This document shows positions 3,733 through 24,593 of a stretch of DNA of 32,000 nt, piece by piece. The DNA lies in contig NZIO01000031.1 in assembly GCA_002689925.1 (NCBI GenBank), positions 2,982 to 34,981 on the forward strand, read 5' to 3'. The notes beneath the pieces are model-generated. The model did not search any database. It was not told the DNA's origin and was given only the letters and a program-made list of their open reading frames with translations. The stretch comes from Candidatus Pelagibacter sp. (GTDB lineage: Bacteria > Pseudomonadota > Alphaproteobacteria > Pelagibacterales > Pelagibacteraceae). A program made the translations under genes and the position numbers. Within the stretch, counting starts at the first letter, position 1. Every line of letters starts with the position of its first letter.

Positions 3733-4608
3733 GTGGGTACAAACACTAAAATTATAATAGGAACAGCAAATTTTGCAACTGAATATGGTATTTTGAAAAA
3801 AAAACCAATCAGTTTGAAAAATATTTCAAAAATATTTACTTTTTGTAAAAATTCAAAAATTAAATTTATTGATACAGCAAAAGCATATGGTAATTGTGAA
3901 GAAAAAATAGGAAAACTAAACTTAAAAAATTTTAAAGTCATTACTAAATTACAAAACTGTGAAAAAAAAAAAATTGATCACAAACAATGGGTAAGAAATC
4001 AAATTTTTAATTCTTTAAAATTATTAAACATAAATTCACTTTATGGAGTTTTGCTTCATAAACCTTTAGAGCTACTAAAACCAGGTGGAAAAGAAATTTA
4101 TTCTGCTTTAAAGAAACTTAAATTAAATGGTTATATTAAAAAAATTGGATTTTCAATTAATTCACCAAATGATCTAGATTTATTATTTAAAAAATTCAAA
4201 CCAGATATAGTTCAATCTCCTTTGAATATATTTGATAGAAGAATTGTAGAATCTGGTTGGTTAAGTCGTTTATCAAGCAAAAATATAGAAGTGCATGCAA
4301 GATCTATCTTTTTACAAGGCCTTCTTTTAAAAGAAAGAAAAAAAATTCCATCAAAATTTGCAGTTTATAATAAATTTTTTATTAATTGGCACAATTGGCT
4401 ATATAAAAATAATCAAAAACCACTTGAGGCTTGTTTAAACTTTATCTTTTCTCAAAAAAAAATAAATCAAATTGTAATTGGAATTGATAACTTGGAACAA
4501 TTAAAAATTATTTTAAAACATTCATATTCTAAAAAAGATTTACCACCTAAAAATTTATCTTCTAAATCATCTAAATTAATCAGCCCATCTGAATGGAAAA
4601 ATCTTTAA
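3733..4608 (+). CDS. Aldo/keto reductase family oxidoreductase (GTG start)
   Basis: 291 aa. N-terminal IIGTANFATEYG and IDTAKAYGNCEEKIG match the AKR signatures (lGt..fG, iDTA..YG.sE..iG). This is the first biosynthetic gene after the 82-bp leader. Confidence 0.7.
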   Translation: MGTNTKIIIGTANFATEYGILKKKPISLKNISKIFTFCKNSKIKFIDTAKAYGNCEEKIGKLNLKNFKVITKLQNCEKKKIDHKQWVRNQIFNSLKLLNINSLYGVLLHKPLELLKPGGKEIYSALKKLKLNGYIKKIGFSINSPNDLDLLFKKFKPDIVQSPLNIFDRRIVESGWLSRLSSKNIEVHARSIFLQGLLLKERKKIPSKFAVYNKFFINWHNWLYKNNQKPLEACLNFIFSQKKINQIVIGIDNLEQLKIILKHSYSKKDLPPKNLSSKSSKLISPSEWKNL

Positions 4609-5339
4609 ACATAACAGCATTAGTTCAAGCAAGAATGGGTTCTTCAAGACTTTATGGCAAAGTAATGAAGAAAGTTTGTGGAAAAAGTTTAATTGAATTA
4701 TTATTAAAACGATTATCCAAATCAAAATTAATAAAAAAAATAATTGTTATAACCCCAAAAAGTAATGAAAATGATATCCTTGCAAAAAAAGTTAAGTCTT
4801 TAGGTTATGACATTTTCAGAGGCAAAGAGAAAGATGTTTTAGATAGATTCTATCAAGCAATAAAGAAAGACAAACCAGAAATAGTTATAAGAATAACAGG
4901 AGATTGTCCTTTAATAGATTATAGGATAGTAGATAAGATGATTAAACTTTTTAAATCTAAAAATTATGATTATTTATCAAATAATGACCCACCCACATAT
5001 CCAGACGGACTAGACGTGGAAATGTTTAATTTTAAATCATTAGATTACGCCTGGAAATATGCTACTAAAAAATATGACAGAGAGCATGTGACTCCGTTCA
5101 TTAAAAAAACTAAAAAATTTAAGTGTAAAAATATAAAGCACTCTAAAGATTATAGCGACGAAAGAATTACTCTTGATGAACAAGAAGATTTTAAATTGAT
5201 AAAAAATATTTTTCAATATTTCTATCCAAAAATTTATTTTAATTGGTTAGAAATTATTAATCTTAAAAAAAAACGACCTTTATGGTTTAAAGTCAATCAA
5301 AACATTGAAAGAAACGAAGGATCAAAAAAATTAAATTAA
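4593..5339 (+). CDS. SpsF-type cytidylyltransferase-fold protein (CTP_transf_3-like)
   Basis: 248 aa. ALVQARMGSSRLYGKVMKKVCGKSLIELLLKRL and ITGDCPLID are typical of SpsF/FlmC-like proteins. It overlaps the upstream stop by 16 nt. Confidence 0.7.
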   Translation: MEKSLNITALVQARMGSSRLYGKVMKKVCGKSLIELLLKRLSKSKLIKKIIVITPKSNENDILAKKVKSLGYDIFRGKEKDVLDRFYQAIKKDKPEIVIRITGDCPLIDYRIVDKMIKLFKSKNYDYLSNNDPPTYPDGLDVEMFNFKSLDYAWKYATKKYDREHVTPFIKKTKKFKCKNIKHSKDYSDERITLDEQEDFKLIKNIFQYFYPKIYFNWLEIINLKKKRPLWFKVNQNIERNEGSKKLN

Positions 5340-5349
5340 ATTTTACAAA

Positions 5350-6672
5350 ATGAAAAAAAAGAATTTACTAAAAAAAGGACTAAAATTATATAAAAGAGCA
5401 AAAGAAATAATTCCTGGTGGAAACATGTTACTTTCTAAAAGACCAGAGCTTTTTTTGCCAGGTGGTTGGCCTCCATATTTTAAAAAAGCACAGGGATGTT
5501 TCGTTTGGGATATAGATAACAATAAATATATTGACATGAGTTTAATGGGAGTTGGAACTAACATATTAGGTTATTCTAATAAAATTGTAGACAAATCTGT
5601 GCAAAATGTAATTAAAACAGGTAACTTAAGCTCCCTTAATTGTGTAGAAGAAGTTCAGCTAGCTGAGCAGCTAATTAAAATACATCCTTGGGCAAAAATG
5701 GTGAAGTTTGCAAGATCTGGAGGAGAAGCTAATTCAATTGCAATAAGAATAGCAAGGGCTGCAAGCGGCAGAGATAAAGTTGCTTTTTGTGGATATCATG
5801 GTTGGCATGATTGGTATTTGGCAACTAATTTAGAAAAAAAAGGTAATCTGAATAGTCATCTTTTGCCTAGTTTAAAAATTAGGGGTGTTCCTCAAAATTT
5901 AAGAAATACAATATTCCCGTTTATGTACAATGATTTTAAACAATTGAAAAATATAGTGGACAGAGAAAAAATTGGAGTAATTTGCATGGAAGTTACTAGA
6001 AATGAATTACCAAAAAATAATTTTTTACAAAAAGTTAGAGATCTAGCTTCTAAAAAAGGTATTGTTCTTATTTTTGATGAATGCACCTCTGGATTTAGAA
6101 AAAATTTTGGAGGTATTCATAAGTATTTTAAAGTAAACCCAGACCTTGCTTTGTTTGGAAAGGCTTTAGGAAATGGATATGCAATTACATCAATTATTGG
6201 AAAAAAAGAAGTAATGGAGTCTGCTCAAGATAGTTTTATTAGTAGTACTTTTTGGACTGAAAGAGTGGGGCCAACAGCTGCATTGGCTACTCTAAGAACA
6301 ATGAAACAAACTAAATCATGGGAAAAAATAGATTCTAATGGAAAGTTTATTATTAAAGAATGGTCAAGACTTGCAAAAAAATATAATTTAGATATACAAA
6401 TCCAAGGTCTTCCTGCTTTGTGTAGTTTTTCAATTAAAAGCAAATATTCTAGGCAATATAAAACATTGATTTCACAAGAAATGTTAAAAAAGGGCTTTTT
6501 AGCTGGAACAGCAATTTATTCAACAGTTTCTCATACTAAAGAAATTTTAAATAAGTATTTTTATGAATTAGAAAGAATATTTAAGCTAATTCAAAGCTGT
6601 GAAGATGGAAGAAATATTTTTGATATATTAAATTACCCCACAGCACACTCAACATTTGAAAGATTAAATTAA
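5350..6672 (+). CDS. Class-III PLP aminotransferase, glutamate-1-semialdehyde aminomutase-like
   Basis: 440 aa. IPGGNMLLSKRP..., ARSGGEANSIAIRIARA, IFDECTSGFR and DLALFGKALGNGYA (PLP lysine) match the HemL-like layout. The glycan-locus context argues against a housekeeping HemL. Confidence 0.75.
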   Translation: MKKKNLLKKGLKLYKRAKEIIPGGNMLLSKRPELFLPGGWPPYFKKAQGCFVWDIDNNKYIDMSLMGVGTNILGYSNKIVDKSVQNVIKTGNLSSLNCVEEVQLAEQLIKIHPWAKMVKFARSGGEANSIAIRIARAASGRDKVAFCGYHGWHDWYLATNLEKKGNLNSHLLPSLKIRGVPQNLRNTIFPFMYNDFKQLKNIVDREKIGVICMEVTRNELPKNNFLQKVRDLASKKGIVLIFDECTSGFRKNFGGIHKYFKVNPDLALFGKALGNGYAITSIIGKKEVMESAQDSFISSTFWTERVGPTAALATLRTMKQTKSWEKIDSNGKFIIKEWSRLAKKYNLDIQIQGLPALCSFSIKSKYSRQYKTLISQEMLKKGFLAGTAIYSTVSHTKEILNKYFYELERIFKLIQSCEDGRNIFDILNYPTAHSTFERLN

Positions 6673-6677
6673 AAATT

Positions 6678-7700
6678 ATGAAAAAAAATAAGTTCAAATT
6701 ACCTTTTTTTATTGCAGAAATTTCAGCAAATCATTGTGGAAATTTTAATTTAGCAAAAAAATTAATTAAATGTGCAAAAGATAATGGTGCTGATGCTGTA
6801 AAATTGCAAACTTATACTGCAGATACAATGACTATTAAATCTGATAAAAAATATTTTAAGATTAAAGATGGTTTATGGAAAGGTTATCAGCTTTGGGATT
6901 TATACAACAAAGCCCATACTCCACTGGTATGGCACTCAAAACTTTTTAAATATGCAAAATCTATTGGAATCAAAATCTTTAGCACTCCATTTGATGAAAC
7001 AGCTGTAGATTTTTTAGAGAAGTTAAATTGTCCAATTTATAAGATTGCTTCATTTGAAATGACAGACATACCTTTAATAGCAAAAATTGCTTCAACAAAA
7101 AAACCTTTAATTATTTCTACTGGGATGGCAACTTTAGATGAAATTGAATTAACATTTAACACTGCAAAAAAATATGGCTCTAAGGATATTACTCTTTTAT
7201 ATTGTGTTAGTAATTATCCATCAAAAAATTCAGATTTTAATTTAAATAATATAAAAATTTTAAAAGATAAATTTAAATGTAGAGTTGGTTTTTCAGATCA
7301 TTCAAAAAATAATAAAATTGCATTAGCTGCAATTGCATCTGGAGCAGAAGTAATTGAAAAGCATATAGCTTTAGGAAATCAAAAAAAAGGACTTGATATT
7401 AACTTTTCTTTAAAAGGAAAAGAAATAGGAGTTTTTAGACAAATTATTGATGAAGCTTATAACCTATTAGGTAAAAAAAGATTCTACAGAAACAAATCTG
7501 AGGATAAAAGCAAAGTTTTTAGGAGATCTATATTTGCAATTAAAGATATAAGAAAGGGTGAAAAATTTACCAAAAACAATATAAAACGAATTAGACCAGG
7601 TTATGGACTGCCTCCACTTTATTATAAAAGATTGTTAAATAAAAAATCTTTAATTAATATAAAGAAAGGAACACCCTTAAAATTTAATAATTTCAAATAG
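6678..7700 (+). CDS. pseI: Pseudaminic acid synthase-like NeuB-family nonulosonic acid synthase
   Basis: 340 aa. FIAEISANHCGNFNLAKKLIKCAKDNGADAVKLQTYTADTMT...GLW...LY..AHTP..WH...YKIASFE...ISTGMAT...GFSDHS...VIEKH, plus a C-terminal SAF-like segment, tracks my recollection of Campylobacter/Helicobacter PseI closely. Confidence 0.8.
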   Translation: MKKNKFKLPFFIAEISANHCGNFNLAKKLIKCAKDNGADAVKLQTYTADTMTIKSDKKYFKIKDGLWKGYQLWDLYNKAHTPLVWHSKLFKYAKSIGIKIFSTPFDETAVDFLEKLNCPIYKIASFEMTDIPLIAKIASTKKPLIISTGMATLDEIELTFNTAKKYGSKDITLLYCVSNYPSKNSDFNLNNIKILKDKFKCRVGFSDHSKNNKIALAAIASGAEVIEKHIALGNQKKGLDINFSLKGKEIGVFRQIIDEAYNLLGKKRFYRNKSEDKSKVFRRSIFAIKDIRKGEKFTKNNIKRIRPGYGLPPLYYKRLLNKKSLINIKKGTPLKFNNFK

Positions 7701-7708
7701 GATAAAAA

Positions 7709-8722
7709 ATGTTTAATAAAAAAAATATATTAGTAACTGGAGGAACAGGATCGTTTGGGTCTTTTTTAGTTCAATATTTAGCTGAAAACTATCAACCTAA
7801 TAAAATTATTATATATAGCAGGGATGAACTAAAACAGTACGAATTACAAAATAAGGAATTTGTTAAAAAAAATAAAAAGATATTTCGTTTTTTTATAGGT
7901 GATATAAGAGATAAAGACAGATTAAATTTTGCATTTAAAAATAATATTGATTATGTTTTTCATGCTGCGGCCTTGAAACAAGTTCCTGCAGCTGAATATA
8001 ATCCTTTTGAAGCTATTAAAACTAATATCATAGGGTCACAAAATATTATAGACGCTGCTATAGCTAATAATGTTAAAAAAACTATTGCCCTGAGCACAGA
8101 TAAAGCTTCATCCCCAATTAATTTGTATGGTGCTACAAAACTTGTTTCTGATAAACTCTTTGTTGCAGCTAATAATTTTAAAAATAATGATTCTATTTTT
8201 TCTGTAGTTAGATATGGAAATGTTATGGGAAGCAGAGGTTCAGTTATTCCACATTTTTTATCTAAGAAAGATTCAAATCAACTAGAAATTACTGATACTA
8301 GAATGACTCGTTTTAATATTACTCTTAAAGAAGGAGTGGAATTTGTAATTAAATGTTTAAGTAAAAGTTTAGGGGGGGAAGTTTTTGTTCCTAAAATACC
8401 ATCTTATAAAATAACTGATATTGCAAAAGCAATTGCTCCCAAAGCTAAATTAAAAATTATTGGAATTAGACCAGGTGAGAAAATTCATGAAGAAATGATA
8501 TCATCTTCAGAAGGAATGAATACTTTTGAATTTAAAGATTATTTTATTATTTTTCCACAATCACAAGATATATCTTGGGGAATGAAAGAATTTAATAAAA
8601 TCCATAATGGAGAAAAATTTCAAAAAAAAGAATATGGTTTTAGCTATCAAAGCCAAAATAATAAAGATTTTTTAAGCTTAGATCAGATTAAAAATCTCAT
8701 TAAAAAAGAAAGTTACAAATAA
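7709..8722 (+). CDS. pseB: UDP-N-acetylglucosamine 4,6-dehydratase (inverting), PseB/FlaA1 type
   Basis: 337 aa. ILVTGGTGSFG, IIIYSRDELKQ, FFIGDIRD, HAAALKQVPAAEYNPFEAIKTNIIGSQN, LSTDKASSPINLYGATKL, VVRYGNVMGSRGSVIP, MTRFNITL and GIRPGEKIHEEM are near-identical in pattern to H. pylori PseB. Confidence 0.9.
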   Translation: MFNKKNILVTGGTGSFGSFLVQYLAENYQPNKIIIYSRDELKQYELQNKEFVKKNKKIFRFFIGDIRDKDRLNFAFKNNIDYVFHAAALKQVPAAEYNPFEAIKTNIIGSQNIIDAAIANNVKKTIALSTDKASSPINLYGATKLVSDKLFVAANNFKNNDSIFSVVRYGNVMGSRGSVIPHFLSKKDSNQLEITDTRMTRFNITLKEGVEFVIKCLSKSLGGEVFVPKIPSYKITDIAKAIAPKAKLKIIGIRPGEKIHEEMISSSEGMNTFEFKDYFIIFPQSQDISWGMKEFNKIHNGEKFQKKEYGFSYQSQNNKDFLSLDQIKNLIKKESYK

Positions 8723-8737
8723 TAAATTAACATTTAT

Positions 8738-10030
8738 ATGAAAAAAATAGTTTATGTTGCTTTATCAGCAGACATTTTACATGAAGGACATATAAATGTT
8801 CTTAAAAAAGCATCAAAATTTGGAGATGTAGTAGTAGGACTTCTTACCGACGAAGCTATAGCAACATATAAAAAGTTTCCTCATCTAAACTACAAACAAA
8901 GAGAAATTGTTTTAAAGAATATTAAATTTGTTAAAAGAGTAATACCTCAAAGAACACATGATTATTCAGAAAATTTAAATATACTTAAGCCTCACTTTGT
9001 AGTACATGGAGATGATTGGAAAAAAGGTGTTCAATCTTTAGTAAGAAAAAGAGTCTTAAGTACTTTAAAAAAATGGAAAGGTAAGTTAATTGAAATAAAG
9101 TATACAAAAAATATTTCTTCGACACTAATAAGAGATAAAATTAAATCATTAGGCACAACACCTGAAGTAAGAAAGTCGAAATTAAAAAGATTAATAGCAG
9201 CAAAAAAAATTGTTAGATTTCTTGAGTCACACAATTCGCTTACAGGATTAATTATTGAGAAACTTAATATAGTCAGTAAAAATCAAATATTAGAATTTGA
9301 TGGTATGTGGTCATCAAGCCTAACCGACTCAATATCAAGAGGTAAGCCTGATAATCAATCAGTTGATTATTCTACAAGAATATTGGGGCTTAATGAGACA
9401 TTAGACGCAACAACTAAACCTATAATTTTTGATGCAGATAATGGCGGAAGAAACGAACATATACGTCACCTTGTTAAATCCTTAGAGAGAGCGGGAGTTT
9501 CAGCAATGGTTATAGAGGACAAGGTTGGTTTAAAGCAAAATTCATTATTTAAGAATCAAAAAAACATTAAACAAGATAGTATAAAAGAATTTTGTAAAAA
9601 AATTCAGATTGCTAAAGACTCAAGAATTTCTAATGATTTTATGATTGTAGCTAGAATAGAAAGTTTTATTTTAGGAAAGTCTCTTAAAGATGCCCTTAAT
9701 AGGGCAGAAGCTTACTCAAAGGCAGGAGCTGATGCAATTTTAATTCACAGCAAAGAAAAGACTCCAAAACAGATTTTTAGTTTTTCAAAAAAATTTATAA
9801 AAAGCAAATACTATAAACCTATGATTGCAGTACCTTCCAAATATTCAAAAACTAATGAAATTTCATTGATTAAGAATAATTTTAAAGTTGTAATTTATGC
9901 AAATCATTTAATGAGAGCATCACATTTTGCAATGTACAAAACAGCTAGCCAAATTTTAAAAAACGGCAGAAGTTTTGAATCTGAAAAAAATATTACAAAC
10001 CTCGAATCAATCCTGCGTCTTATAAAATAA
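8738..10030 (+). CDS. pepM: Bifunctional cytidylyltransferase (HxGH type) / phosphoenolpyruvate mutase
   Basis: 430 aa. The N-terminal ~135 aa carry HEGH (nt 8780-8791) and ISSTLIR, which are TagD/CCT/ECT-type cytidylyltransferase signatures. The C-terminal ~280 aa are isocitrate-lyase/PEP-mutase-like and contain EDKVGLKQNS (nt 9515-9544), an exact match to the EDK-X5-NS PEP-mutase discriminator motif. Confidence 0.85.
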   Translation: MKKIVYVALSADILHEGHINVLKKASKFGDVVVGLLTDEAIATYKKFPHLNYKQREIVLKNIKFVKRVIPQRTHDYSENLNILKPHFVVHGDDWKKGVQSLVRKRVLSTLKKWKGKLIEIKYTKNISSTLIRDKIKSLGTTPEVRKSKLKRLIAAKKIVRFLESHNSLTGLIIEKLNIVSKNQILEFDGMWSSSLTDSISRGKPDNQSVDYSTRILGLNETLDATTKPIIFDADNGGRNEHIRHLVKSLERAGVSAMVIEDKVGLKQNSLFKNQKNIKQDSIKEFCKKIQIAKDSRISNDFMIVARIESFILGKSLKDALNRAEAYSKAGADAILIHSKEKTPKQIFSFSKKFIKSKYYKPMIAVPSKYSKTNEISLIKNNFKVVIYANHLMRASHFAMYKTASQILKNGRSFESEKNITNLESILRLIK

Positions 10031-10040
10031 TAAACATTTT

Positions 10041-10838
10041 ATGATTAGTAAAAAAGATATTTTAAAATATAATAATGATGGGTATTTAACAATTAAAAAT
10101 TTTTTTAATAAAAAAGAAATATTAAACGCTAAAAATGAAATATTAAAAAAAGTAAATTCTAAAAATAAATTAATATCTACTTATTATGAGGATATTAAAA
10201 AAAAAAAAGAAATTCGAAGAATTGAAAAAATATCAGATTATTCAAAATATTCAAAAAAACTTGTAATTTCAGAAAAATTAAAAAAAATATTAAAAATTCT
10301 TTTAAAGAAAAAATTTTTTTTGTTCAAAGATAAGGTCAACTTTAAACAACCTGGTGGAGCAGGTTTTCTTCCTCATATTGATGGACATTTTTATTGGAAA
10401 AATAAAAAAGATGGTAAACAGCAAGAAGGGTGGAGTAAATATGGAGACAGCTTTATTAATATTGTGATCCCAATGGATTCAACTACAAAAAAGAATGGTT
10501 ATCTTTTTTTATCTAAAAAAAAATATACTTTTAAAAAGTATGGAAAAAGATGGAAAAATATTGCTGATAATTTAGTTTCAGGCACACCTAACTTAAAAGA
10601 TGATGATATTAAAGATTTCAAGTTTAATGGAATGGTTTTAAATATAGGAGATATACTTATTTTTGATTGGAAATGTTGTCATTTTTCAAAAAAAAATTTA
10701 AGTAAAAAATCCAGAATGATTTTTTATCTTACATATGTAAATGCTTGTAAAAAAAATTCTAATTATTTAGTTCGTAAAAAATATTATAGTGAAAAAAAAA
10801 ACAGTCTTAATCCTTTAAAAAGAAAATCATTACAATAG
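10041..10838 (+). CDS. PhyH-family Fe(II)/2-oxoglutarate-dependent dioxygenase
   Basis: 265 aa. Start MISKKDILKYNNDGYLTIKNFF; KQPGGAGFLPHIDGHF (HxD, nt 10374-10382); distal His in CCHFS (nt 10680-10682); SRMIFYLTY as a candidate 2OG-binding Arg. Very lysine-rich. Confidence 0.6.
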   Translation: MISKKDILKYNNDGYLTIKNFFNKKEILNAKNEILKKVNSKNKLISTYYEDIKKKKEIRRIEKISDYSKYSKKLVISEKLKKILKILLKKKFFLFKDKVNFKQPGGAGFLPHIDGHFYWKNKKDGKQQEGWSKYGDSFINIVIPMDSTTKKNGYLFLSKKKYTFKKYGKRWKNIADNLVSGTPNLKDDDIKDFKFNGMVLNIGDILIFDWKCCHFSKKNLSKKSRMIFYLTYVNACKKNSNYLVRKKYYSEKKNSLNPLKRKSLQ

Positions 10839-10840
10839 AA

Positions 10841-11941
10841 ATGATAGCTGCTAAAAATTTTTCAAATACTCTGTTAAAAGAAAATATTAACTTTATAACT
10901 GGTGTACCTGATAGTGTTTTAAAAAATATGATTTTTTCATTTGATAAAAATAAGAAATTTAAGCATATGCCTGCAAATAATGAAGGAACTGCAGTTGCTT
11001 TAGCAATAGGCCATAACTTATCTACAAAGAAAATGGCAGCTGTTTACTTTCAAAACTCTGGACTAGGAAATGCCATAAATCCACTTATTTCTATTGCTCA
11101 TCAAAAAGTATACTCAATTCCAATGGTTTTGATAATAGGTTGGAGAGGATCACCAAATAAACCTGTTGATGAACCTCAACATTCAGTAAAAGGAAAAATT
11201 ACAAAGCAAATTCTTAAACTTTTAAATATTAAGTATTGTATTATAAGAAAAAAGAAGGATTTGAATAAACTTAAAGATTTAATCAAGTTATCTAAAAAAA
11301 ATAAAAAACCAGTAGCATGTTTAGTCGAAAAAGGAACACTTGAAAATCAAAGCAACAAAAACAAAAAAAAATCTAAAAAAAAATATTTACTTAGACATGA
11401 AATAATTTTAGATTTATTAAACAAAATTAAACCTAGCACAAAAATAATCTCAACTACTGGTTATACCTCAAGAGAATTGTATCAATTAAGAAATACTTAT
11501 AATATTTCGAAAGGATCAGATTTTTATATGGTTGGTGGCATGGGTCATTCAGCGATGGTATCTGTTGGTGTAGCACTTAGTACAAGAAATGAAATAATAT
11601 GTTTAGATGGAGATGGATCAATTTTAATGCACCTAGGTTCTTTGAGTTTAATAAGAGGGTCAAATAATAAAAATTTTAAACATATTTTATTAAATAATAG
11701 TTCTCACGAATCAGTTGGGGGACAAAAAACACCAGCTAACAAAATTAATTTTAAATTATTAACTTCTAGCCTAGGGTATAAAAATTATTTTTTTGCCTCT
11801 AATAAGAAAAATTATAATACAAATATTAATAAGTTTTTAAAATCAAAAGGGCCAAGCTTCTTTGAAATTAGAATAGAAGAAGGAAGTATAAAAAATTTAT
11901 TAAGGCCAAATAATTTAAAGAAAATTAAGAATAAATTTTAA
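10841..11941 (+). CDS. ppd: Phosphonopyruvate decarboxylase (ThDP-dependent)
   Basis: 366 aa. INFITGVPDSVLK, NEGTAVALAIGH and the ThDP motif LDGDGSILMHLGS...ILLNNSSHESVGGQ are present. The size, and the position two genes downstream of the PEP mutase gene (the dioxygenase ORF lies between them), fit Ppd. Sulfopyruvate decarboxylase is the nearest alternative family. Confidence 0.8.
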   Translation: MIAAKNFSNTLLKENINFITGVPDSVLKNMIFSFDKNKKFKHMPANNEGTAVALAIGHNLSTKKMAAVYFQNSGLGNAINPLISIAHQKVYSIPMVLIIGWRGSPNKPVDEPQHSVKGKITKQILKLLNIKYCIIRKKKDLNKLKDLIKLSKKNKKPVACLVEKGTLENQSNKNKKKSKKKYLLRHEIILDLLNKIKPSTKIISTTGYTSRELYQLRNTYNISKGSDFYMVGGMGHSAMVSVGVALSTRNEIICLDGDGSILMHLGSLSLIRGSNNKNFKHILLNNSSHESVGGQKTPANKINFKLLTSSLGYKNYFFASNKKNYNTNINKFLKSKGPSFFEIRIEEGSIKNLLRPNNLKKIKNKF

Positions 11942-11950
11942 CTATTTTTA

Positions 11951-13069
11951 ATGATTAGCTATTTAAAATCTACCAATTTAAGTTCTTTAAAAGAATTGTT
12001 AAAAAAAAATAACAATAAAAGAATATTAGTTATTTCAGGAAAAAAATCTTATTATAAGTCTGGAGCAAATAAAATATTTTTTAATTTGTTTAAAAAATTT
12101 AAACATCTAAACTTTTATTTTAAACAATCTTATTTTCCAGAAATTAGTGAATTAATTAAAATAATAAGAAGAATTAAAATATTTCAACCAGATATAATTA
12201 TATCAATTGGAGGAGGTTCAGTTATAGATTATGCAAAAATTGCAAATACCCTATATGATTGTAGAAATATAAAGAATCTAATTATCAAATCAAAGTACAA
12301 TATTAAAAATAAGTATTGTTCATTAATAGCAATACCTACAACCGCAGGCTCAGGAGCAGAAGTAACATCTAATGCAGTAATCTATATTGATAAAAAAAAA
12401 TATTCCATTGAGAATGAAGCATTGATTCCAAATTATTTTTATTTTATCCCTGAATTAATTAAGAATTCTTCAAAAAAAATTAAAGCTTCTTCTGGATTTG
12501 ATGCGATGGCTCAATCACTTGAATCTATTATTTCATTAAAATCAAATTCTACAAGTATAAAATATGCATCAAAATCACTTGAATATTCTTTAAATAATTA
12601 TTTAAATTTTATAAAAAAACCAAATATAAAAAATACTTATAATATGTGTATTTCTGCAAATTTATCTGGCAAAGCTATAAGCATTTCTAAAACAACAGCA
12701 CCTCATGCTGTATCTTATCCTTTTACAGCACATTTTGGAGTAAGTCATGGACATGCTGTATCTCTTACTCTTAATGAGTTTTTAAAATTTAACTTTTTTA
12801 ATATGGGTAATATTAACGTGAATTTTAATTTAAAAAAAAGGTATGAATTAATTTTTAAAATTTTCAAAGTAAAAAATATTTTTGAATTTGATAAAAAATT
12901 AGAAAATTTAAAAAAAGAAGCTAAACTAGAGCAAAATTTTACTAAATTGGGCATTAACATAGCCGAAAACTATAGTAAAATTTTATCTGGAGTTAATACA
13001 CTTAGACTTAAAAACAATCCTATTAATCTAGACAGATCAATAATTAAGAAAATTCTTTTAGAAAAATAA
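11951..13069 (+). CDS. Iron-containing alcohol dehydrogenase, phosphonate-associated (phosphonoacetaldehyde reductase candidate)
   Basis: 372 aa. GGGSVIDYAKI, PTTAGSGAEVT and HAVSYPFTAHFGVSHGHAVS are Fe-ADH signatures. It lies immediately after ppd. Confidence 0.7.
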   Translation: MISYLKSTNLSSLKELLKKNNNKRILVISGKKSYYKSGANKIFFNLFKKFKHLNFYFKQSYFPEISELIKIIRRIKIFQPDIIISIGGGSVIDYAKIANTLYDCRNIKNLIIKSKYNIKNKYCSLIAIPTTAGSGAEVTSNAVIYIDKKKYSIENEALIPNYFYFIPELIKNSSKKIKASSGFDAMAQSLESIISLKSNSTSIKYASKSLEYSLNNYLNFIKKPNIKNTYNMCISANLSGKAISISKTTAPHAVSYPFTAHFGVSHGHAVSLTLNEFLKFNFFNMGNINVNFNLKKRYELIFKIFKVKNIFEFDKKLENLKKEAKLEQNFTKLGINIAENYSKILSGVNTLRLKNNPINLDRSIIKKILLEK

Positions 13070-13074
13070 AACAG

Positions 13075-14442
13075 ATGCCTAAAGATACTATAATATATAT
13101 TCCAATTGAGGCTCCAAAAAGAGAACTTACTTCAAAAACAATGCTTGCTACAAGATTAGCTAAAGCTGGCTATACTACTATATTATTTGAGCACAGTTTT
13201 TTTGATAGACATAAATGGAAAATGCCGGGATTATATTTAGGTAAAAATTTTTTTAGATACGAGAAAAGCAAAACAAATAAATCCTGGTATAATGAAATGA
13301 AAAAAAGCAAAATTGATATTTGGTATTTAGATGAAGAGGCAGGAATTTTCCCTGGAAAAGACCCTAAATCATGGAAAATTTTTTTAGATGAAAGAATTGA
13401 TATAAATAATTTATCATCAAAAGATAAGATTCTTGTTTGGGGAAGGTGGCAGAAAGAACATTGGATAGAAAAAACAAATAAACATGAAGAAAAAAACATT
13501 ATTATAACTGGAACACCACATTATGATATGCTTCAAACAAAATATCATAAATATTTTAGAGAATTTGATTTAAATACTACAGGTAATCTTGAAAATTATA
13601 TTTTAATAAATACTAGATTTTCTCTCGTAAATAGTCATCCAAGACTAGGAAGAAAGGCTGTAGAGAAATTTTATTTAGATGCTGAAGAATCTTTTAAAAA
13701 GTTTAATAAAGAAAAATTTTCTTCTCTCATATTTAAAGAAGAAACTTTTTTAATAAAAAATTTTATTGAATTAGCTAAATACTTATCTGAAAATTTTACT
13801 GATAAAAATATTGTGCTTAGAGCTCACCCAGATGAAGGTTCAGAAAGATATAAAAATGAATTAAGTGCGCATAAAAATATAAAAGTAATTTCTGAGGGAG
13901 GGATTGATAGCTGGATAAGACTTTCTGATTGTGTAATTCACAATGGTTGTTCAACAGCAATTCAGGCTGATTTTGCAAAAAAAAAAGTAATTAGTTATTT
14001 ACCTTCAGATGGAGGACTAAATTTTTATGTAACTACACCAGGTTTACCCAACATGATTGGATTTTTAGCTAAAACCAATGAAGATGTTAAGGAAGCAATA
14101 AAAAATCCAGTTTACAAACAATCAAAACAAAAATGGGAAAGCACTTTTTCTGAAGAAAATACTATTGAAAAAATTGCTTCAATGGTTGAAGAATTTTATC
14201 CAGAAGACAAAACTTCTTCAATGAATATATTTAAGAATTTAAAGATAAAATATTTCATGGTTAATATAAAAGAGTTTTTAAAGGATATCTTAAGACCAAT
14301 TTTTAAAAAACCAAAAGTAATTTTTCCATATGAGGAGTTTTATAATATTATGAAAATTTCATCTACGACATCTAATATTTATGACACTAAAATTTCAGTT
14401 AATAAATTAGCAAGAGGAGCTATTGTAATATCGCCAAAATAA
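13075..14442 (+). CDS. Uncharacterised surface-carbohydrate biosynthesis protein, GT-B / Capsule_synth (KpsS/TagF)-like
   Basis: 455 aa. It has a Rossmann-like N-terminus (IIYIPIEAPKRELTSKTMLATRLAKAGYTTILF). The C-terminal half, IVLRAHPDEG...IKVISEGGIDSWIRLSDCVIHNGCSTAIQADFAKKKVISY, resembles the HP...ST...A motif arrangement of capsule/teichoic CMP/CDP-donor transferases. No specific family is recognised. Confidence 0.35.
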   Translation: MPKDTIIYIPIEAPKRELTSKTMLATRLAKAGYTTILFEHSFFDRHKWKMPGLYLGKNFFRYEKSKTNKSWYNEMKKSKIDIWYLDEEAGIFPGKDPKSWKIFLDERIDINNLSSKDKILVWGRWQKEHWIEKTNKHEEKNIIITGTPHYDMLQTKYHKYFREFDLNTTGNLENYILINTRFSLVNSHPRLGRKAVEKFYLDAEESFKKFNKEKFSSLIFKEETFLIKNFIELAKYLSENFTDKNIVLRAHPDEGSERYKNELSAHKNIKVISEGGIDSWIRLSDCVIHNGCSTAIQADFAKKKVISYLPSDGGLNFYVTTPGLPNMIGFLAKTNEDVKEAIKNPVYKQSKQKWESTFSEENTIEKIASMVEEFYPEDKTSSMNIFKNLKIKYFMVNIKEFLKDILRPIFKKPKVIFPYEEFYNIMKISSTTSNIYDTKISVNKLARGAIVISPK

Positions 14443-21440: not shown

Positions 21441-22778
21441 ATGAAAAATTTATATATAGTACATGCCGTTGATACTGAAGGACCACTTAATGAAAGTTTA
21501 GATGCAACTTTTATAAGAATTAAAGAATTATTTAATATTAAAGGCATACCCAAAAATAAAAAAACTTTAGAAGATTTACGAAATGGCAAATATACCAAAA
21601 ACAAAATTAAATTAAAAAAAATAAAAGAAACATTAAATCCCCATTTACTTGACTACAAAAAAAACTGGAAAGAAATTAAAGACAACTTACAAGAATCATG
21701 TTCTAAAAGTTTTAGAAATTTACAAAAAGATTCCTTTGGAAATGGTTGGGTTTATAGTTGGCATTGTGTCGATCATGTTAATTTCAAAACTAACCCAAGA
21801 AAAAAAACTTTTGGTTACCATAAAATATTTGACTATTATAAAAATTTTATAAGAAAGAAAGAAAACCTTAAAGACAAGATACATTTCCATTTTCACCCTA
21901 TGTCAACTTATTTTGAGTCAAACAGAAATGCTTCATCTTTTGAAAACTCACCTCATTTGCATCAAGTAATGTGTAAAAGAATAATCGATCGTAAATGGTT
22001 TCCAGTAGTTAATAGAGCTGGATTTCATATTGAAAGACCAGACAGTAATTGGTTTTTAGAGCAGTGGATACCTTTTGATTTGTCAAATATTTCCCAAAAA
22101 AAAGCCAAAAACAATAAAATTGATCAAGCATATGAAGCAAGAGGTTATGATTGGAGAAGAGCTACACAAAAATGGGAATTATATAATCCAAGTCATGATG
22201 ATTATCAGGTACCAGGAAAATGCAGGAGATATATTGGAAGAGTTCTGGGTATAATGAATCGAACTGAGTCAATAACTTTAAAAGAAACTATTAAAGCATT
22301 TAAAAGAGCATCAAAAGGCAAAAATACAATGATGGCAGTGACCTCTCATGATTTTAGAAGTCTTAAGGCTGAAGTGGAAGAAGTTAGAAAATATATTTCG
22401 ATTGCACATAAAAGATTTCCTAAAGTTAAAATAAAATTTTGTGACTCTTTGGAAGGTTTTAGAAAAGTTTTGAATATAAAAAACCCTGAATCGAAAAGAC
22501 TTAAATTATCCATAAGAAAGATAAAAACAAAAAATGCAGAGACTTGTTTTAAAATATCAACCTTAAAAGGAAAAGTTTTTGGACCACAACCTTATTTAGC
22601 AATGAAATTAAAAAATGGAACATATAGACATGATAATTTAGATTTTGGACTCAAAGCTGGAGAATGGTTTTATTCAGTTTATGAAGATACAATTAAATTA
22701 TCTGATATAAAAGAAGTAGCAGTTGGAGCAGCTGATCAAAAAGGTAATTTTGATATATGCTCAATAAAATTTAAATAA
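21441..22778 (+). CDS. Conserved-looking hypothetical protein; possible metal-dependent carbohydrate esterase/hydrolase fold
   Basis: 445-aa uninterrupted ORF packed 2 nt after the sulfotransferase gene. Notable elements are YIVHAVDTEGP, a His cluster KIHFHFHP, and MMAVTSHDF. I recognise no family. Confidence 0.3.
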   Translation: MKNLYIVHAVDTEGPLNESLDATFIRIKELFNIKGIPKNKKTLEDLRNGKYTKNKIKLKKIKETLNPHLLDYKKNWKEIKDNLQESCSKSFRNLQKDSFGNGWVYSWHCVDHVNFKTNPRKKTFGYHKIFDYYKNFIRKKENLKDKIHFHFHPMSTYFESNRNASSFENSPHLHQVMCKRIIDRKWFPVVNRAGFHIERPDSNWFLEQWIPFDLSNISQKKAKNNKIDQAYEARGYDWRRATQKWELYNPSHDDYQVPGKCRRYIGRVLGIMNRTESITLKETIKAFKRASKGKNTMMAVTSHDFRSLKAEVEEVRKYISIAHKRFPKVKIKFCDSLEGFRKVLNIKNPESKRLKLSIRKIKTKNAETCFKISTLKGKVFGPQPYLAMKLKNGTYRHDNLDFGLKAGEWFYSVYEDTIKLSDIKEVAVGAADQKGNFDICSIKFK

Positions 22779-22796: not shown

Positions 22797-24593
22797 ATGT
22801 TTAAATCAATTTTACATCTTTATAGTTTATTAACACCCAAGCAACAGTTTAATTTAAAAGTTCTTCAGTTGTTAATGATTGTATCTGCTTTGTTAGAAAT
22901 TATAAGTATTGCATCTGTAGGCCCATTTATAATGTTGGCTGTTAATAATAATATTTTACAAGAAAATGAGATTTTTAAAATTTTAGCTAATATCATAGGA
23001 ACAACAACGTACAATGGTTTTTTAATAAAATTAGGAACTATTACTCTTTTAATCTTTGTAATAAGTTCAGTTATTTCCATATTTACTCTTTGGCGTTTAA
23101 ATTTATATTGCCATAAAATTGGTGCAGAAATATCAATTAAATTATTTAAATACTATATTTATCAATCATGGCTTTATCATACACAAAACACTAGCAACGT
23201 AATTTTTACAAAACTTATTTCTGAATGCCAAAGACTTACAAACAACATAACTTATCCTATTCTTTTTATGAATTCTAAAATAATTTTATGTTTATGCATG
23301 TTAATTGCAATTTTAGTATACAAACCAATTATTGTATTAATAACAGTTATCTTTGCATCAGTTTTTTATTTTATATTTTATAGTCTTTTTAAATTTAGAT
23401 TAAAAAAATTTGGTCAATTAGTTTCATCAAGTCAAAAAAATATTTTTAATATTGTTTCTGAAAGTTTTGGAGGAATAAAAGATGTGCTATTTTTGGGAAA
23501 ACAAAAAAAGTTTATTAGAGAATTTGATAAAAACTATTTAACATTTGGACGAAGCGTAGGGACCGCAGCAGCATTAGGACAAATACCAAAATATATATTA
23601 GAGCTTTTAGGCTATGGGTCAGTAATATTAATAATAATCTATATTATAAGTTTTGAAGATAAAAACTTTATTAACTATCTTCCAATTTTATCTGTTTATG
23701 CACTTGCTGGGTTGAAGTTGCTCCCTGCATTCCAAGCTATTTATAGTTGTGTTTCTGGCATTAAATCAAATATTCAGGCTTTTGAAGTTTTAAAAGAAGA
23801 TATATCAAAAAGTAAGTATGAATTAATAGAATCGCAAGATGATAAGGATTTACCTCAAATAAATAGTAAAATAGAATTAAAGGATATATCCTTTGCTTAC
23901 CCAAATAAAAAAAACTTAATACTTAGTAATTTTAATTTATCTTTACCAATTAAAAAAGTTATTGGCATAGTAGGTGAAACTGGTTCTGGAAAATCTACTT
24001 TAATAGATATCATTTTAGGTCTAATCGAACCTCAAAGCGGAGGGTTATATTTAGACGGTAAAAAATTATTAAATAAACAAAAAAGAGCTTGGCAAAATCA
24101 AATTGGAGTAGTCCCTCAAAATATTTTTTTAATGAATAAGTCAATAAAAGAAAATATTGCCTTCGAGCTAGACCCAAAGACAATTGATGAGGAAAAAATA
24201 TTTAATGCACTAAAGCTTTCGAGACTAGATAAGTTTGTTTCAACTCTTCCAAATGGAATAAATACAATAGTAGGTGAAAGAGGTGTTCAACTTTCAGGTG
24301 GTCAATGTCAAAGAGTAGGTATTGCTAGAGCATTGTATAACGATCCTGAATTTCTTTTATTTGATGAAGCTACCAGTTCTCTTGATGGTATAACAGAAAA
24401 ATTAATAATGGATGCTATCCAAGATTTTTCAGGAAATAAAAGTATTATCATTATAACCCATAGATTAAGCACAATTAAAATTTGTGATAACATCTTTTTA
24501 ATCGAGAATGGAAAAGTAGTTGATGAAGGAAGTTATTCAACTTTAATAAAAAATAACGATAAGTTTAAAAAAATGGCAGCCGAAGATAATTAG
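22797..24593 (+). CDS. ABC exporter, fused permease/ATPase half-transporter (MsbA/PglK-like)
   Basis: 598 aa. The N-terminal ~300 aa have about six hydrophobic segments. These are followed by Walker A GETGSGKST, the signature LSGGQCQR, Walker B LLFDEATS and H-loop IITHRL. Confidence 0.85.
   Translation: MFKSILHLYSLLTPKQQFNLKVLQLLMIVSALLEIISIASVGPFIMLAVNNNILQENEIFKILANIIGTTTYNGFLIKLGTITLLIFVISSVISIFTLWRLNLYCHKIGAEISIKLFKYYIYQSWLYHTQNTSNVIFTKLISECQRLTNNITYPILFMNSKIILCLCMLIAILVYKPIIVLITVIFASVFYFIFYSLFKFRLKKFGQLVSSSQKNIFNIVSESFGGIKDVLFLGKQKKFIREFDKNYLTFGRSVGTAAALGQIPKYILELLGYGSVILIIIYIISFEDKNFINYLPILSVYALAGLKLLPAFQAIYSCVSGIKSNIQAFEVLKEDISKSKYELIESQDDKDLPQINSKIELKDISFAYPNKKNLILSNFNLSLPIKKVIGIVGETGSGKSTLIDIILGLIEPQSGGLYLDGKKLLNKQKRAWQNQIGVVPQNIFLMNKSIKENIAFELDPKTIDEEKIFNALKLSRLDKFVSTLPNGINTIVGERGVQLSGGQCQRVGIARALYNDPEFLLFDEATSSLDGITEKLIMDAIQDFSGNKSIIIITHRLSTIKICDNIFLIENGKVVDEGSYSTLIKNNDKFKKMAAEDN

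Follow-up and report, generated by a model that had tools for sequence, protein, structure and literature searches.

A stretch of 32,000 nucleotides from Candidatus Pelagibacter sp. (contig NZIO01000031.1, positions 2,982 to 34,981; hereafter the window) encodes, at 13075-14442, a protein of 455 amino acids (aa) that is probably a transferase of nonulosonic acids (NulOs) activated by cytidine monophosphate (CMP). This reading is based on the presence of genes of the same family in addition to complete NulO pathways, on their linkage to NulO genes, on the knock-outs of remotely homologous transferases in Tannerella forsythia, on the predicted fold, and on the conserved motifs. The open reading frame (ORF) lies on the + strand, with an ATG at 13075 and a TAA stop at 14440-14442, and it closely follows a phosphonate cassette: the stop codon of the iron-dependent alcohol dehydrogenase (Fe-ADH) gene (TAA, 13067-13069) is separated from the ATG by the five nucleotides aacag. 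On the other side, 14 bases lie between the stop of the ORF and the next gene (start 14457), whose product is like an adenosine phosphosulfate (APS) kinase. A preliminary description of this DNA had given the same ORF and the same 5-nt spacing, and the peptide strings quoted there, IIYIPIEAPKRELTSKTMLATRLAKAGYTTILF, LRAHPDEG, and SDCVIHNGCSTAIQADFAKKKVISY, are all found in the translation. It had proposed that the protein moves a phosphonate from CMP to a glycan, with the transfer of a CMP-NulO as a fallback. The fallback is the better supported of the two, given the linkage to NulO genes and the homology to the T. forsythia enzymes.

Family membership and conserved residues

The product of the ORF is a member of the NCBIfam family TIGR04396 ("surface carbohydrate biosynthesis protein"), which it matches with 238.4 bits (E 1.7e-70) for a cut-off of 125, with residues 7-385 on model positions 1-355 of 427. 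A six-frame genome search with the same model gave the ORF 238 bits. The ORF had been called an orphan, a term that does not suit a member of such a large catalogued family: when the family profile was run exhaustively against 1.84 billion cluster representatives (50%-identity representatives), 8,939 matched at E<=1e-3, and 3,268 did so at E<=1e-30; almost all of them are 420-490 aa long. A word-indexed search retrieved 24 relatives of the ORF, a scan for related loci with a 9-sequence alignment gave 6, and a literature search for TIGR04396 found no paper. The ORF adds one more member to a known and named family, whose function has been assigned by inference, not by measurement. The only Pfam hit of the ORF is a sub-threshold match to Epimerase_2 (PF02350; 16.6 vs 30.6 bits, E 0.0037, residues 137-194). 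It has no match to Capsule_synth (PF05159) at E<=1, nor to Glyphos_transf (PF04464). Weak Pfam matches are scattered among the 89 family members that we scanned: Epimerase_2 in 23, DUF354 in 11, Glyphos_transf in 7 (best E 1.3e-6), Capsule_synth in 5 (best E 0.012), and LpxB in 4.

We computed residue conservation over 165 family representatives. The best-conserved positions are P10, E12, R16, E17, G52, K57, D86-E87-E88-G, W122-G123, and G146-x-P148, followed in the C-terminal part by R249-P-H251-P252-x-E254, W280, and H289-x-G-C292-T-T294-x-x-E297. The core residues R16, E87/E88, W122-G123, G146, R249-x-H251-P252, E254, and C292-x-T294 are all present in the ORF. Position 297 is a glutamine in the ORF and throughout its clade, and a glutamate in 82% of the family. 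Within TIGR04396, conservation is highest at the two motifs that have been reported for bacterial sialyltransferases, where the consensus is LDEEGG and RPHP; the ORF has them as DEEAG (86-90) and RAHP (249-252). The loop past strand 1 is also present in alignments A1 and A3. The ORF and its motifs are the following:

13075..14442, + strand: family ORF (P0001), 455 aa, TIGR04396 member, probable CMP-nonulosonic-acid transferase
13102..13125, + strand: P10-x-E12-x3-R16-E17 loop past strand 1 (R16 invariant, E12 96%, E17 93%, P10 90%)
13330..13344, + strand: D86-E87-E88-A89-G90, D/E-D/E-G-type motif ending strand 80-85, candidate general base (E88 100%, E87 96%)
13819..13836, + strand: R249-A250-H251-P252-D-E254, HP motif past the first strand of the C-terminal domain (R249 and P252 100%, H251 and E254 98%)
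13939..13965, + strand: H289-N-G-C292-S-T294-A-I-Q297, at the position of the ribose/phosphate-binding motif of GT-B glycosyltransferases (C292 98%, T294 97%)

Two unusual architectures were found among the relatives. One sequence (P0003), 95% identical to the ORF over 45% of the query (the N-terminal half), is joined to TrkA domains; we set it aside as a chimera or mis-assembly and not as a true architecture of the family. The other (P0072) is a 945-aa fusion of a full family domain to some 490 aa. It is uninformative on function, the extra half being FG-GAP/beta-propeller-like.

Predicted fold

An AlphaFold2 model built from 20 sequences (mean pLDDT 84, pTM 0.87) and compared with known structures in a wide structural search, with which Foldseek agrees, bears out the GT-B fold that had been proposed for this protein. 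The model consists of two Rossmann-like domains (around 1-190 and 241-380) with a helical insert, and it ends in a C-terminal extension (382-455). The N-terminus had been described as Rossmann-like, and it is indeed modelled as beta-alpha-beta (strand 6-11, helix 14-30, strand 34-39). In GT-B enzymes, the N-terminal domain is the acceptor or sugar side and the C-terminal domain is the nucleotide-binding side. Judging from its sequence, the basic amphipathic helix of the extension may be a peripheral membrane anchor. The regions of the model are as follows:

13075..13644, + strand: N-terminal Rossmann-like domain, around residues 1-190 (model secondary structure; fold alignments span 1-380)
13795..14214, + strand: C-terminal Rossmann-like domain, around residues 241-380 (model; hhalign to the C-terminal domain of Escherichia coli WecB)
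14218..14439, + strand: C-terminal extension, residues 382-455, with long helices and a small beta hairpin, kept family-wide (model)
14242..14319, + strand: basic amphipathic helix, around residues 390-415, where the hydrophobic moment of the protein peaks (0.63-0.66) and the net charge is positive

The best fold matches combine epimerases and transferases, which bind a donor or substrate linked to a nucleotide:

UDP-GlcNAc 2-epimerase 1v4v: Z 18.3, the top match
TarL 8va1: Z 17.7, 300 residues aligned
NeuC 5zlr: Z 16.4
Bcs3 8a0c: Z 16.4
TagF 3l7i: Z 16.2, 318 residues aligned
WaaA: Z 13.3
Polysialyltransferase 5wc6: Z 12.3

The C-terminal half had been likened to both KpsS and TagF. The matches to TarL and TagF uphold the second of these likenesses. 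The first is not sustained: there is no Capsule_synth hit, and structures of the KpsC/KpsS type are missing from the best 50 fold matches, an absence from the list that does not exclude a likeness. The matches in the Atlas of predicted structures extend over the whole length of the ORF, tail included (420-428 residues, TM 0.82-0.84), and concern clusters named as TIGR04396. Among the sequences of the PDB, the family profile has no significant match; an epimerase fragment came closest (E 0.64).

Remote homology to Tannerella forsythia transferases

Most family members (85/89) match another model, NF046086 ("BFO_1060 family glycosyltransferase"), at E<=1, with a best value of 1.7e-36. BFO_1060 is the homologue, in strain FDC 92A2, of T. 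forsythia Tanf_01245 (GtfS) and TFUB4_00887. We took a proteobacterial member of NF046086 (P0173, from genome G103, 383 bits, encoded after a PseF-PseG set) as a stand-in for the T. forsythia sequences. The family profile aligns to it in hhalign at 95.6% (E 1.1e-8, 223 columns), pairing DEEG with SEG, TGxPxxD with TGHTGMD, RPHP with RRHP, and CTTAIEA with ETTTNLEA. At the level of profiles, this makes the TIGR04396 family a remote homologue of the T. forsythia transferases of pseudaminic acid (Pse) and legionaminic acid (Leg). Knock-outs of the latter lose only the terminal Pse/Leg derivative of the O-glycan and still accumulate the modified CMP-sugar; complementation restores the glycan, and each transferase is specific for its own sugar (PMC5420450; PMC6120980). 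As of the 2017 paper, no in-vitro assay of these enzymes was reported, and the D/E-D/E-G and HP motifs of bacterial sialyltransferases were noted for them, citing Freiberger et al. 2007 (PMC5420450).

Linkage to nonulosonic-acid genes

The family is closely linked to the genes that make CMP-NulOs. A sample of 401 genomes of the phylum contained a true family member in 14, and wherever their assemblies were contiguous, NeuB, CTP_transf_3, or both were encoded no farther than about 13 kb from the family gene. The family was found in 22 of the 250 genomes of a second sample, from the same order, with a total of 29 genes; NeuB lies within 10 kb of 21 of them and within 16 kb of 23. The most compact arrangement is a module of three genes, FAM-NeuB-NeuA (G159), in which FAM stands for the family gene. 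Other loci have the order NeuB-NeuA-FAM-NeuB-PseG (G146), NeuB-NeuC-FAM-FAM-NeuA (G012, where a second locus has FAM near PseF/PseG and NeuB), or NeuB-NeuC-CMP-synthetase-FAM (L011, a Desulfomonilia locus), and in G164 the pair FAM-FAM is divergent from NeuA-NeuB-NeuC. FAM is 6-12 kb from NeuB in G056, G319, G022, and G006, and in G319 and G022 it lies between two NeuB genes. A NeuC-like gene is beside the family gene in 4 of the 19 same-order loci fetched (L054, L055, L057, L066), and tandem paralogues occur in G012, G164, and G620. Metagenomic contigs and named genomes have the same NeuB/CMP-NulO synthetase neighbourhood as the phylum sample, and a Herbaspirillum island has neuABC followed by a TIGR04396-family gene (PMC6679464). 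A gene that so often comes on top of a complete NeuABC or Pse set, and at times in tandem copies, is very unlikely to stand in for NeuC, LegG, or PseG; the role that suits it best is a step downstream of CMP activation.

Other loci provide further information on the genetic context of the family. The locus of the homologue P0016 (L004) is of the legionaminic type, with a dehydratase, an aminotransferase, a PglD-like acetyltransferase, NeuB, a PtmE-like NTP transferase, and a CMP-synthetase. The 21 kb fetched around it contain no Epimerase_2 gene, and a 270-aa ORF without family (L004:2530-3342) is found where LegG/NeuC normally lies. In L053, L055, L064, L065, and L069, the family gene directly adjoins the gene of an MsbA-like ABC exporter, a homologue of the one at 22797-24593 of the window. 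This hints that the family enzyme and the exporter act on one lipid-linked intermediate.

Gene content of the window

The window is a single long operon of surface-glycan genes on the + strand, according to Pfam and NCBIfam scans of its ORFs. With two NeuB and three CTP_transf_3 genes, it is a NulO locus like those of the rest of the family, and the block at 3733-8722 recurs, in whole or in part, with family genes in the contig of P0013, in L010, and in L059. Its other features are the following:

3733..8722, + strand: putative donor-synthesis block with aldo-keto reductase, CMP-NulO synthetase (CTP_transf_3), class-III aminotransferase, PseI-like NeuB, and PseB-like dehydratase (Pfam)
4593, 19648, and 24599: three CTP_transf_3 CMP-sugar synthetases (Pfam)
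6678 and 16107: NeuB paralogues (Pfam)
7709, end 8722: PseB-like dehydratase (Pfam)
8738..13069, + strand: phosphonate cassette with a fusion of cytidylyltransferase and phosphoenolpyruvate (PEP) mutase, PhyH dioxygenase, phosphonopyruvate decarboxylase, and Fe-ADH
Elsewhere in the window: several DegT aminotransferases, a PglD-like acetyltransferase, Gmd, a sulfotransferase, an ABC exporter, and a GT1 gene

The cytidylyltransferase that had been assigned to the phosphonate cassette is present, in fused form, and we agree with the preliminary description that the window ORFs scanned include no recognisable LicD-type transferase. An ORF of 445 aa at 21441-22778, flanked by the genes of the sulfotransferase and the ABC exporter, has no match in Pfam or NCBIfam and no homologue near other phosphonate cassettes (BLAST, E<=1e-8). 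The assembly of the window (G000) has 7 NeuB and 7 CTP_transf_3 matches, a single Epimerase_2 gene (C20:12653-13657), and no PseG match in its whole length. It is 7% contaminated and probably mixes island variants of several strains.

The neighbouring phosphonate cassette

The proposal that the ORF encodes a CMP-phosphonate transferase is unsupported, because the family tracks NeuB and not ppm, the gene of PEP mutase (Ppm). Homologues have genes of NeuB and of a CMP-NulO synthetase for neighbours both in the presence and in the absence of ppm, a pattern that the preliminary description itself had named as favouring a NulO-related role. PEP mutase is above threshold in 1 of the 14 family-positive genomes of the phylum sample, the window's own genome, and none of the roughly 40 homologue loci has a match to Ppm, phosphonopyruvate decarboxylase (Ppd), or Fe-ADH. 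In the same-order sample, 17 of the 250 genomes (90-99% complete) have the cytidylyltransferase-Ppm gene. Sixteen of these lack the family, and the exception (G613) has its family gene on another contig. The overlap between family and ppm is thus of one genome, for 1.5 expected (22 x 17 / 250).

The same assembly has a second cassette, on contig C11 (L018:2451-10663), which encodes ATP sulfurylase, APS kinase, an AsnB-like protein, the cytidylyltransferase-Ppm fusion, Ppd, and Fe-ADH. It has no family gene and no PhyH, and it has diverged from the cassette of the window (identities of 58% for cytidylyltransferase-Ppm, 52% for Ppd, and 48% for Fe-ADH). Three unknown ORFs beside it were considered as hidden family members and rejected (0.1%, 0.8%, and 2.2%). 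We compared these two cassettes with those of 17 related genomes (L035-L051). All 19 have Ppm and Ppd, 14 have Fe-ADH, and 5 have PhyH; APS kinase is also in 5, which makes the association of phosphonate genes with sulfate-activation genes a recurrent one. A class-V aminotransferase (of the type of L036:11179-12165) is present in 4 of the 5 cassettes without Fe-ADH, pointing to hydroxyethylphosphonate as the product of the Fe-ADH cassettes and to aminoethylphosphonate as that of the aminotransferase cassettes. Several cassettes lie at the edge of the island, beside phoR-pstS-pstC or the gene of an M23 peptidase.

The gene located 3' of the cassette varies among the 19, and it is a family gene in the window only. 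No transferase partner is conserved across them, the widest unnamed clusters being found in 4-5 loci. A recurrent neighbour of 430 aa, examined as a possible partner, turned out to be the M23 peptidase, which is part of the core genome at the island edge. A protein of 558-595 aa without Pfam family is encoded in 4 of the 19 neighbourhoods, e.g., at L041:13579-15255 (- strand), L036:13272-15038 (- strand), and L047:18207-19994 (+ strand); it is a candidate lead for the phosphonate transferase or for a polymerase.

The closest relatives of the ORF (42% identity) suggest how the gene came to follow the cassette. They are found in marine alphaproteobacterial single-cell genomes, L007 (2396-4487) and L008 (1555-3649), and in both only 10 nt separate the family gene from a PseB-like gene directly upstream. 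In the window, the cassette of 4.3 kb lies exactly between PseB (end 8722) and the family gene (start 13075). Because the two genes are adjacent in L007 and L008, it looks like a mobile phosphonate cassette was inserted between them with no functional pairing, although we infer this from few loci.

Proposed mechanism and alternative readings

The product of the ORF would be a GT-B enzyme peripheral to the membrane that moves a CMP-activated sugar of the pseudaminic or legionaminic type onto a growing surface glycan and releases CMP. By synteny, the donor would most likely be a Pse-type sugar made by the block at 3733-8722. The C-terminal Rossmann domain might hold CMP, with R249 and H251 at the phosphate and C292-T294...Q297 at the ribose, and the E87/E88 pair at the domain cleft could act as the base toward the hydroxyl of the acceptor. 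Residues 390-415, which form the basic amphipathic helix, may keep the enzyme at the inner membrane, near a lipid-linked acceptor. The sugar would then pass to an acceptor that is either lipid-linked or a polymer, and export would follow later, perhaps through the ABC exporter that is often encoded next to family genes.

A number of observations weigh against a transfer of CMP-NulO. In a six-frame search, the ORF scores 42.5 bits (E 2e-11) on NF046086, for a cut-off of 200, and is not a member of that family; the match covers 13402-14025 of the window and model positions 99-298. A search of the translated ORF with hmmscan (E<=1) does not list NF046086, unlike the six-frame search, so that the link is thin for the ORF taken by itself, and pairwise BLAST of the ORF with P0173 is not significant. 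The evidence from T. forsythia is purely genetic and concerns a sister family that the ORF does not join. At three conserved positions, the ORF has a residue other than that of the consensus (G89A, R149H, and P250A), the consensus residue being found in 90%, 83%, and 96% of the family, respectively. These small genomes cluster all their surface-glycan genes in one island, so a certain proximity to NeuB would be expected in any case. Transferases, epimerases, and hydrolases cannot be told apart from the fold alone, and the best matches include 2-epimerases. Finally, SpsB of Bacillus subtilis, another TagB-like candidate, is dispensable for Leg transfer (PMC7439481).

Could the protein be a biosynthetic enzyme of the NulO pathway, i.e., a nucleotide-sugar hydrolase or hydrolysing 2-epimerase that replaces PseG, LegG, or NeuC and frees the hexose for the condensation of PEP by NeuB? 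The fold matches to UDP-GlcNAc 2-epimerase and NeuC, the sub-threshold Epimerase_2 match of the ORF and its weak counterparts in 23 of the 89 members, and the alignment to the C-terminal domain of WecB (68%, with H251 on H213) are all consistent with such a role. So are the absence of PseG from an assembly with 7 NeuB and one Epimerase_2 gene on another contig, and the lack of an Epimerase_2 gene at the Leg-like locus of P0016. Yet, NeuC-type or PseG genes are already present in the family operons of G012, G164, G146, and L011, and NeuC-like genes stand beside FAM in L054, L055, L057, and L066. The tandem paralogues of G012, G164, and G620 are typical of transferases. The N-terminal domain does not align to WecB, E. 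coli NeuC gives 0.1% in hhalign, the CMP-sugar pool persists in the knock-outs of the T. forsythia remote homologues, and an amphipathic tail of the membrane type is unexpected in a soluble pathway enzyme. All this makes a biosynthetic role rather unlikely. A transferase that takes part in the assembly of NulO glycans with a donor other than a NulO seems unlikely too. This could be a TagF-like enzyme that moves an alditol or sugar phosphate from a CDP donor, or a hexosyltransferase that builds the acceptor. The top fold matches include TarL, TagF, and Bcs3 (Z 16-17.7), 7 of the 89 members have weak Glyphos_transf matches (best 1.3e-6), several genes of the window encode CTP-dependent nucleotidyltransferases, and the locus of the distant homologue P0017 has no NeuB within the 15 kb available. 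However, the linkage is specifically with NeuB and CMP-NulO synthetase, down to the three-gene module of G159, genes for CDP-alditol synthesis are not recurrent in the loci examined, and the nearest relatives with experimental data are NulO transferases.

The remaining possibilities involve the phosphonate. The enzyme might transfer a phosphonyl group from the cassette's CMP-2-hydroxyethylphosphonate, or its hydroxylated form, to a glycan hydroxyl, by a chemistry like that of TagF. Its start only 5 nt past the last gene of the cassette, its fold similar to those of TagF and TarL, which release CMP as they pass on a phosphoester unit from their CDP-linked donor, and the lack of a recognised LicD-type transferase among the window ORFs scanned speak for this possibility. 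Nevertheless, we regard it as highly improbable in view of the single PEP mutase among the 14 family-positive genomes, the family gene in 1 of 17 ppm-positive genomes (and on another contig), the overlap no larger than expected in the same-order sample, the roughly 40 homologue loci devoid of Ppm, Ppd, and Fe-ADH, the family gene that follows 1 of 19 cassettes and is missing from that of C11, and its position directly after PseB in L007 and L008, which makes the cassette look inserted. The co-occurrence data argue against a general coupling of phosphonates and NulOs. A coupling specific to this strain, in which the NulO itself carries hydroxyethylphosphonate or the enzyme was recruited to accept CMP-phosphonate, and which would be the reason for the arrival of the cassette between PseB and the family gene, has a slim chance of being true. 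If it were, an abundant ocean bacterium would have a phosphonylated sialic-acid-like sugar on its surface.

If the protein is a CMP-NulO transferase, as we favour, it adds to a short list. The accounts consulted mention few transferases of Pse/Leg-type sugars: the Maf proteins, KpsS1 of GT118, the GtfS type of T. forsythia, and FlmG. TIGR04396 is a very large family, and this ORF from a streamlined marine alphaproteobacterium is a clean candidate for biochemistry. It also helps to describe a hypervariable surface-glycan island, which is thought to shape interactions with phages and grazers. For this locus, the practical consequence of the negative result is that the enzyme attaching the phosphonate should be sought elsewhere.

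Comparison with known systems

The UDP-GlcNAc 2-epimerases, including NeuC and LegG, provide the best fold match, but the ORF is below the Pfam threshold for them, and true NeuC and PseG share operons with family genes. The alignment of the family to E. coli WecB (hhalign 68%, E 4.8e-5) is restricted to the C-terminal domain (columns 209-370). It places H251 on H213 and position 297 on E296, with the HNGCST..Q segment on SGGIQEE. The catalytic acidic residues of the WecB N-terminal domain are D95, E117, and E131. DEEAG resembles the VEAG of epimerases by eye only, as the N-terminal domain of WecB is outside the hhalign alignment. The alignments to the single E. coli proteins NeuC (0.1%) and the DUF6716 protein (0.2%) are unusable.

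TagF, TarL, TagB, and the TagF-like module of Bcs3 share with the ORF the GT-B fold (Z 16-17.7, some 300-318 residues) and an HP-type motif in the C-terminal domain. A CMP-containing donor and a peripheral association with the membrane would be expected in both cases. The ORF differs from TagF, TarL, and TagB in its context, which is NulO and not CDP-alditol, and in the lack of a Glyphos_transf match. The catalytic histidine of TagF (H444) and TarL (H300) is in the N-terminal half of the catalytic region. The invariant residues of the family in the N-terminal domain are acidic or basic (E12, R16, E87, E88), not histidine.

KpsS and KpsC (GT107) and KpsS1 of Acinetobacter baumannii (GT118) take a ulosonic or nonulosonic acid from a CMP-activated donor, and an HP-type motif is present in them as well. 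The family aligns to E. coli KpsS at 31% over 81 columns, with HHP on RPHP and NSTAGISA on CTTAIEA. The GT118 enzyme is a pseudaminyltransferase, as cited in PMC12887879. When compared with the GT-B sialyltransferases (GT38 NeuS, GT52, and GT80), the ORF has the motif pair in the same two domains, although short motifs alone are no proof. The alignment to E. coli NeuS (4.7%) is unusable, and PF07388 (GT38) is not among the 25 most frequent families in the Pfam scan of the 89 members; it is found in 18% of the members of one look-alike Atlas cluster.

The ORF shares with the TIGR04396 family its full-length architecture and its NulO-locus context. It differs from the TIGR04396 model in the C-terminal 70 residues, which are outside the match to the hidden Markov model, and in the alanines at 89 and 250. 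The T. forsythia transferases (GtfS/Tanf_01245, TFUB4_00887, and BFO_1060) resemble the ORF in size (about 440 aa), in being GT-B/TagB-like, and in their EG-type and HP motifs, and they are likewise encoded just after NulO biosynthesis genes.

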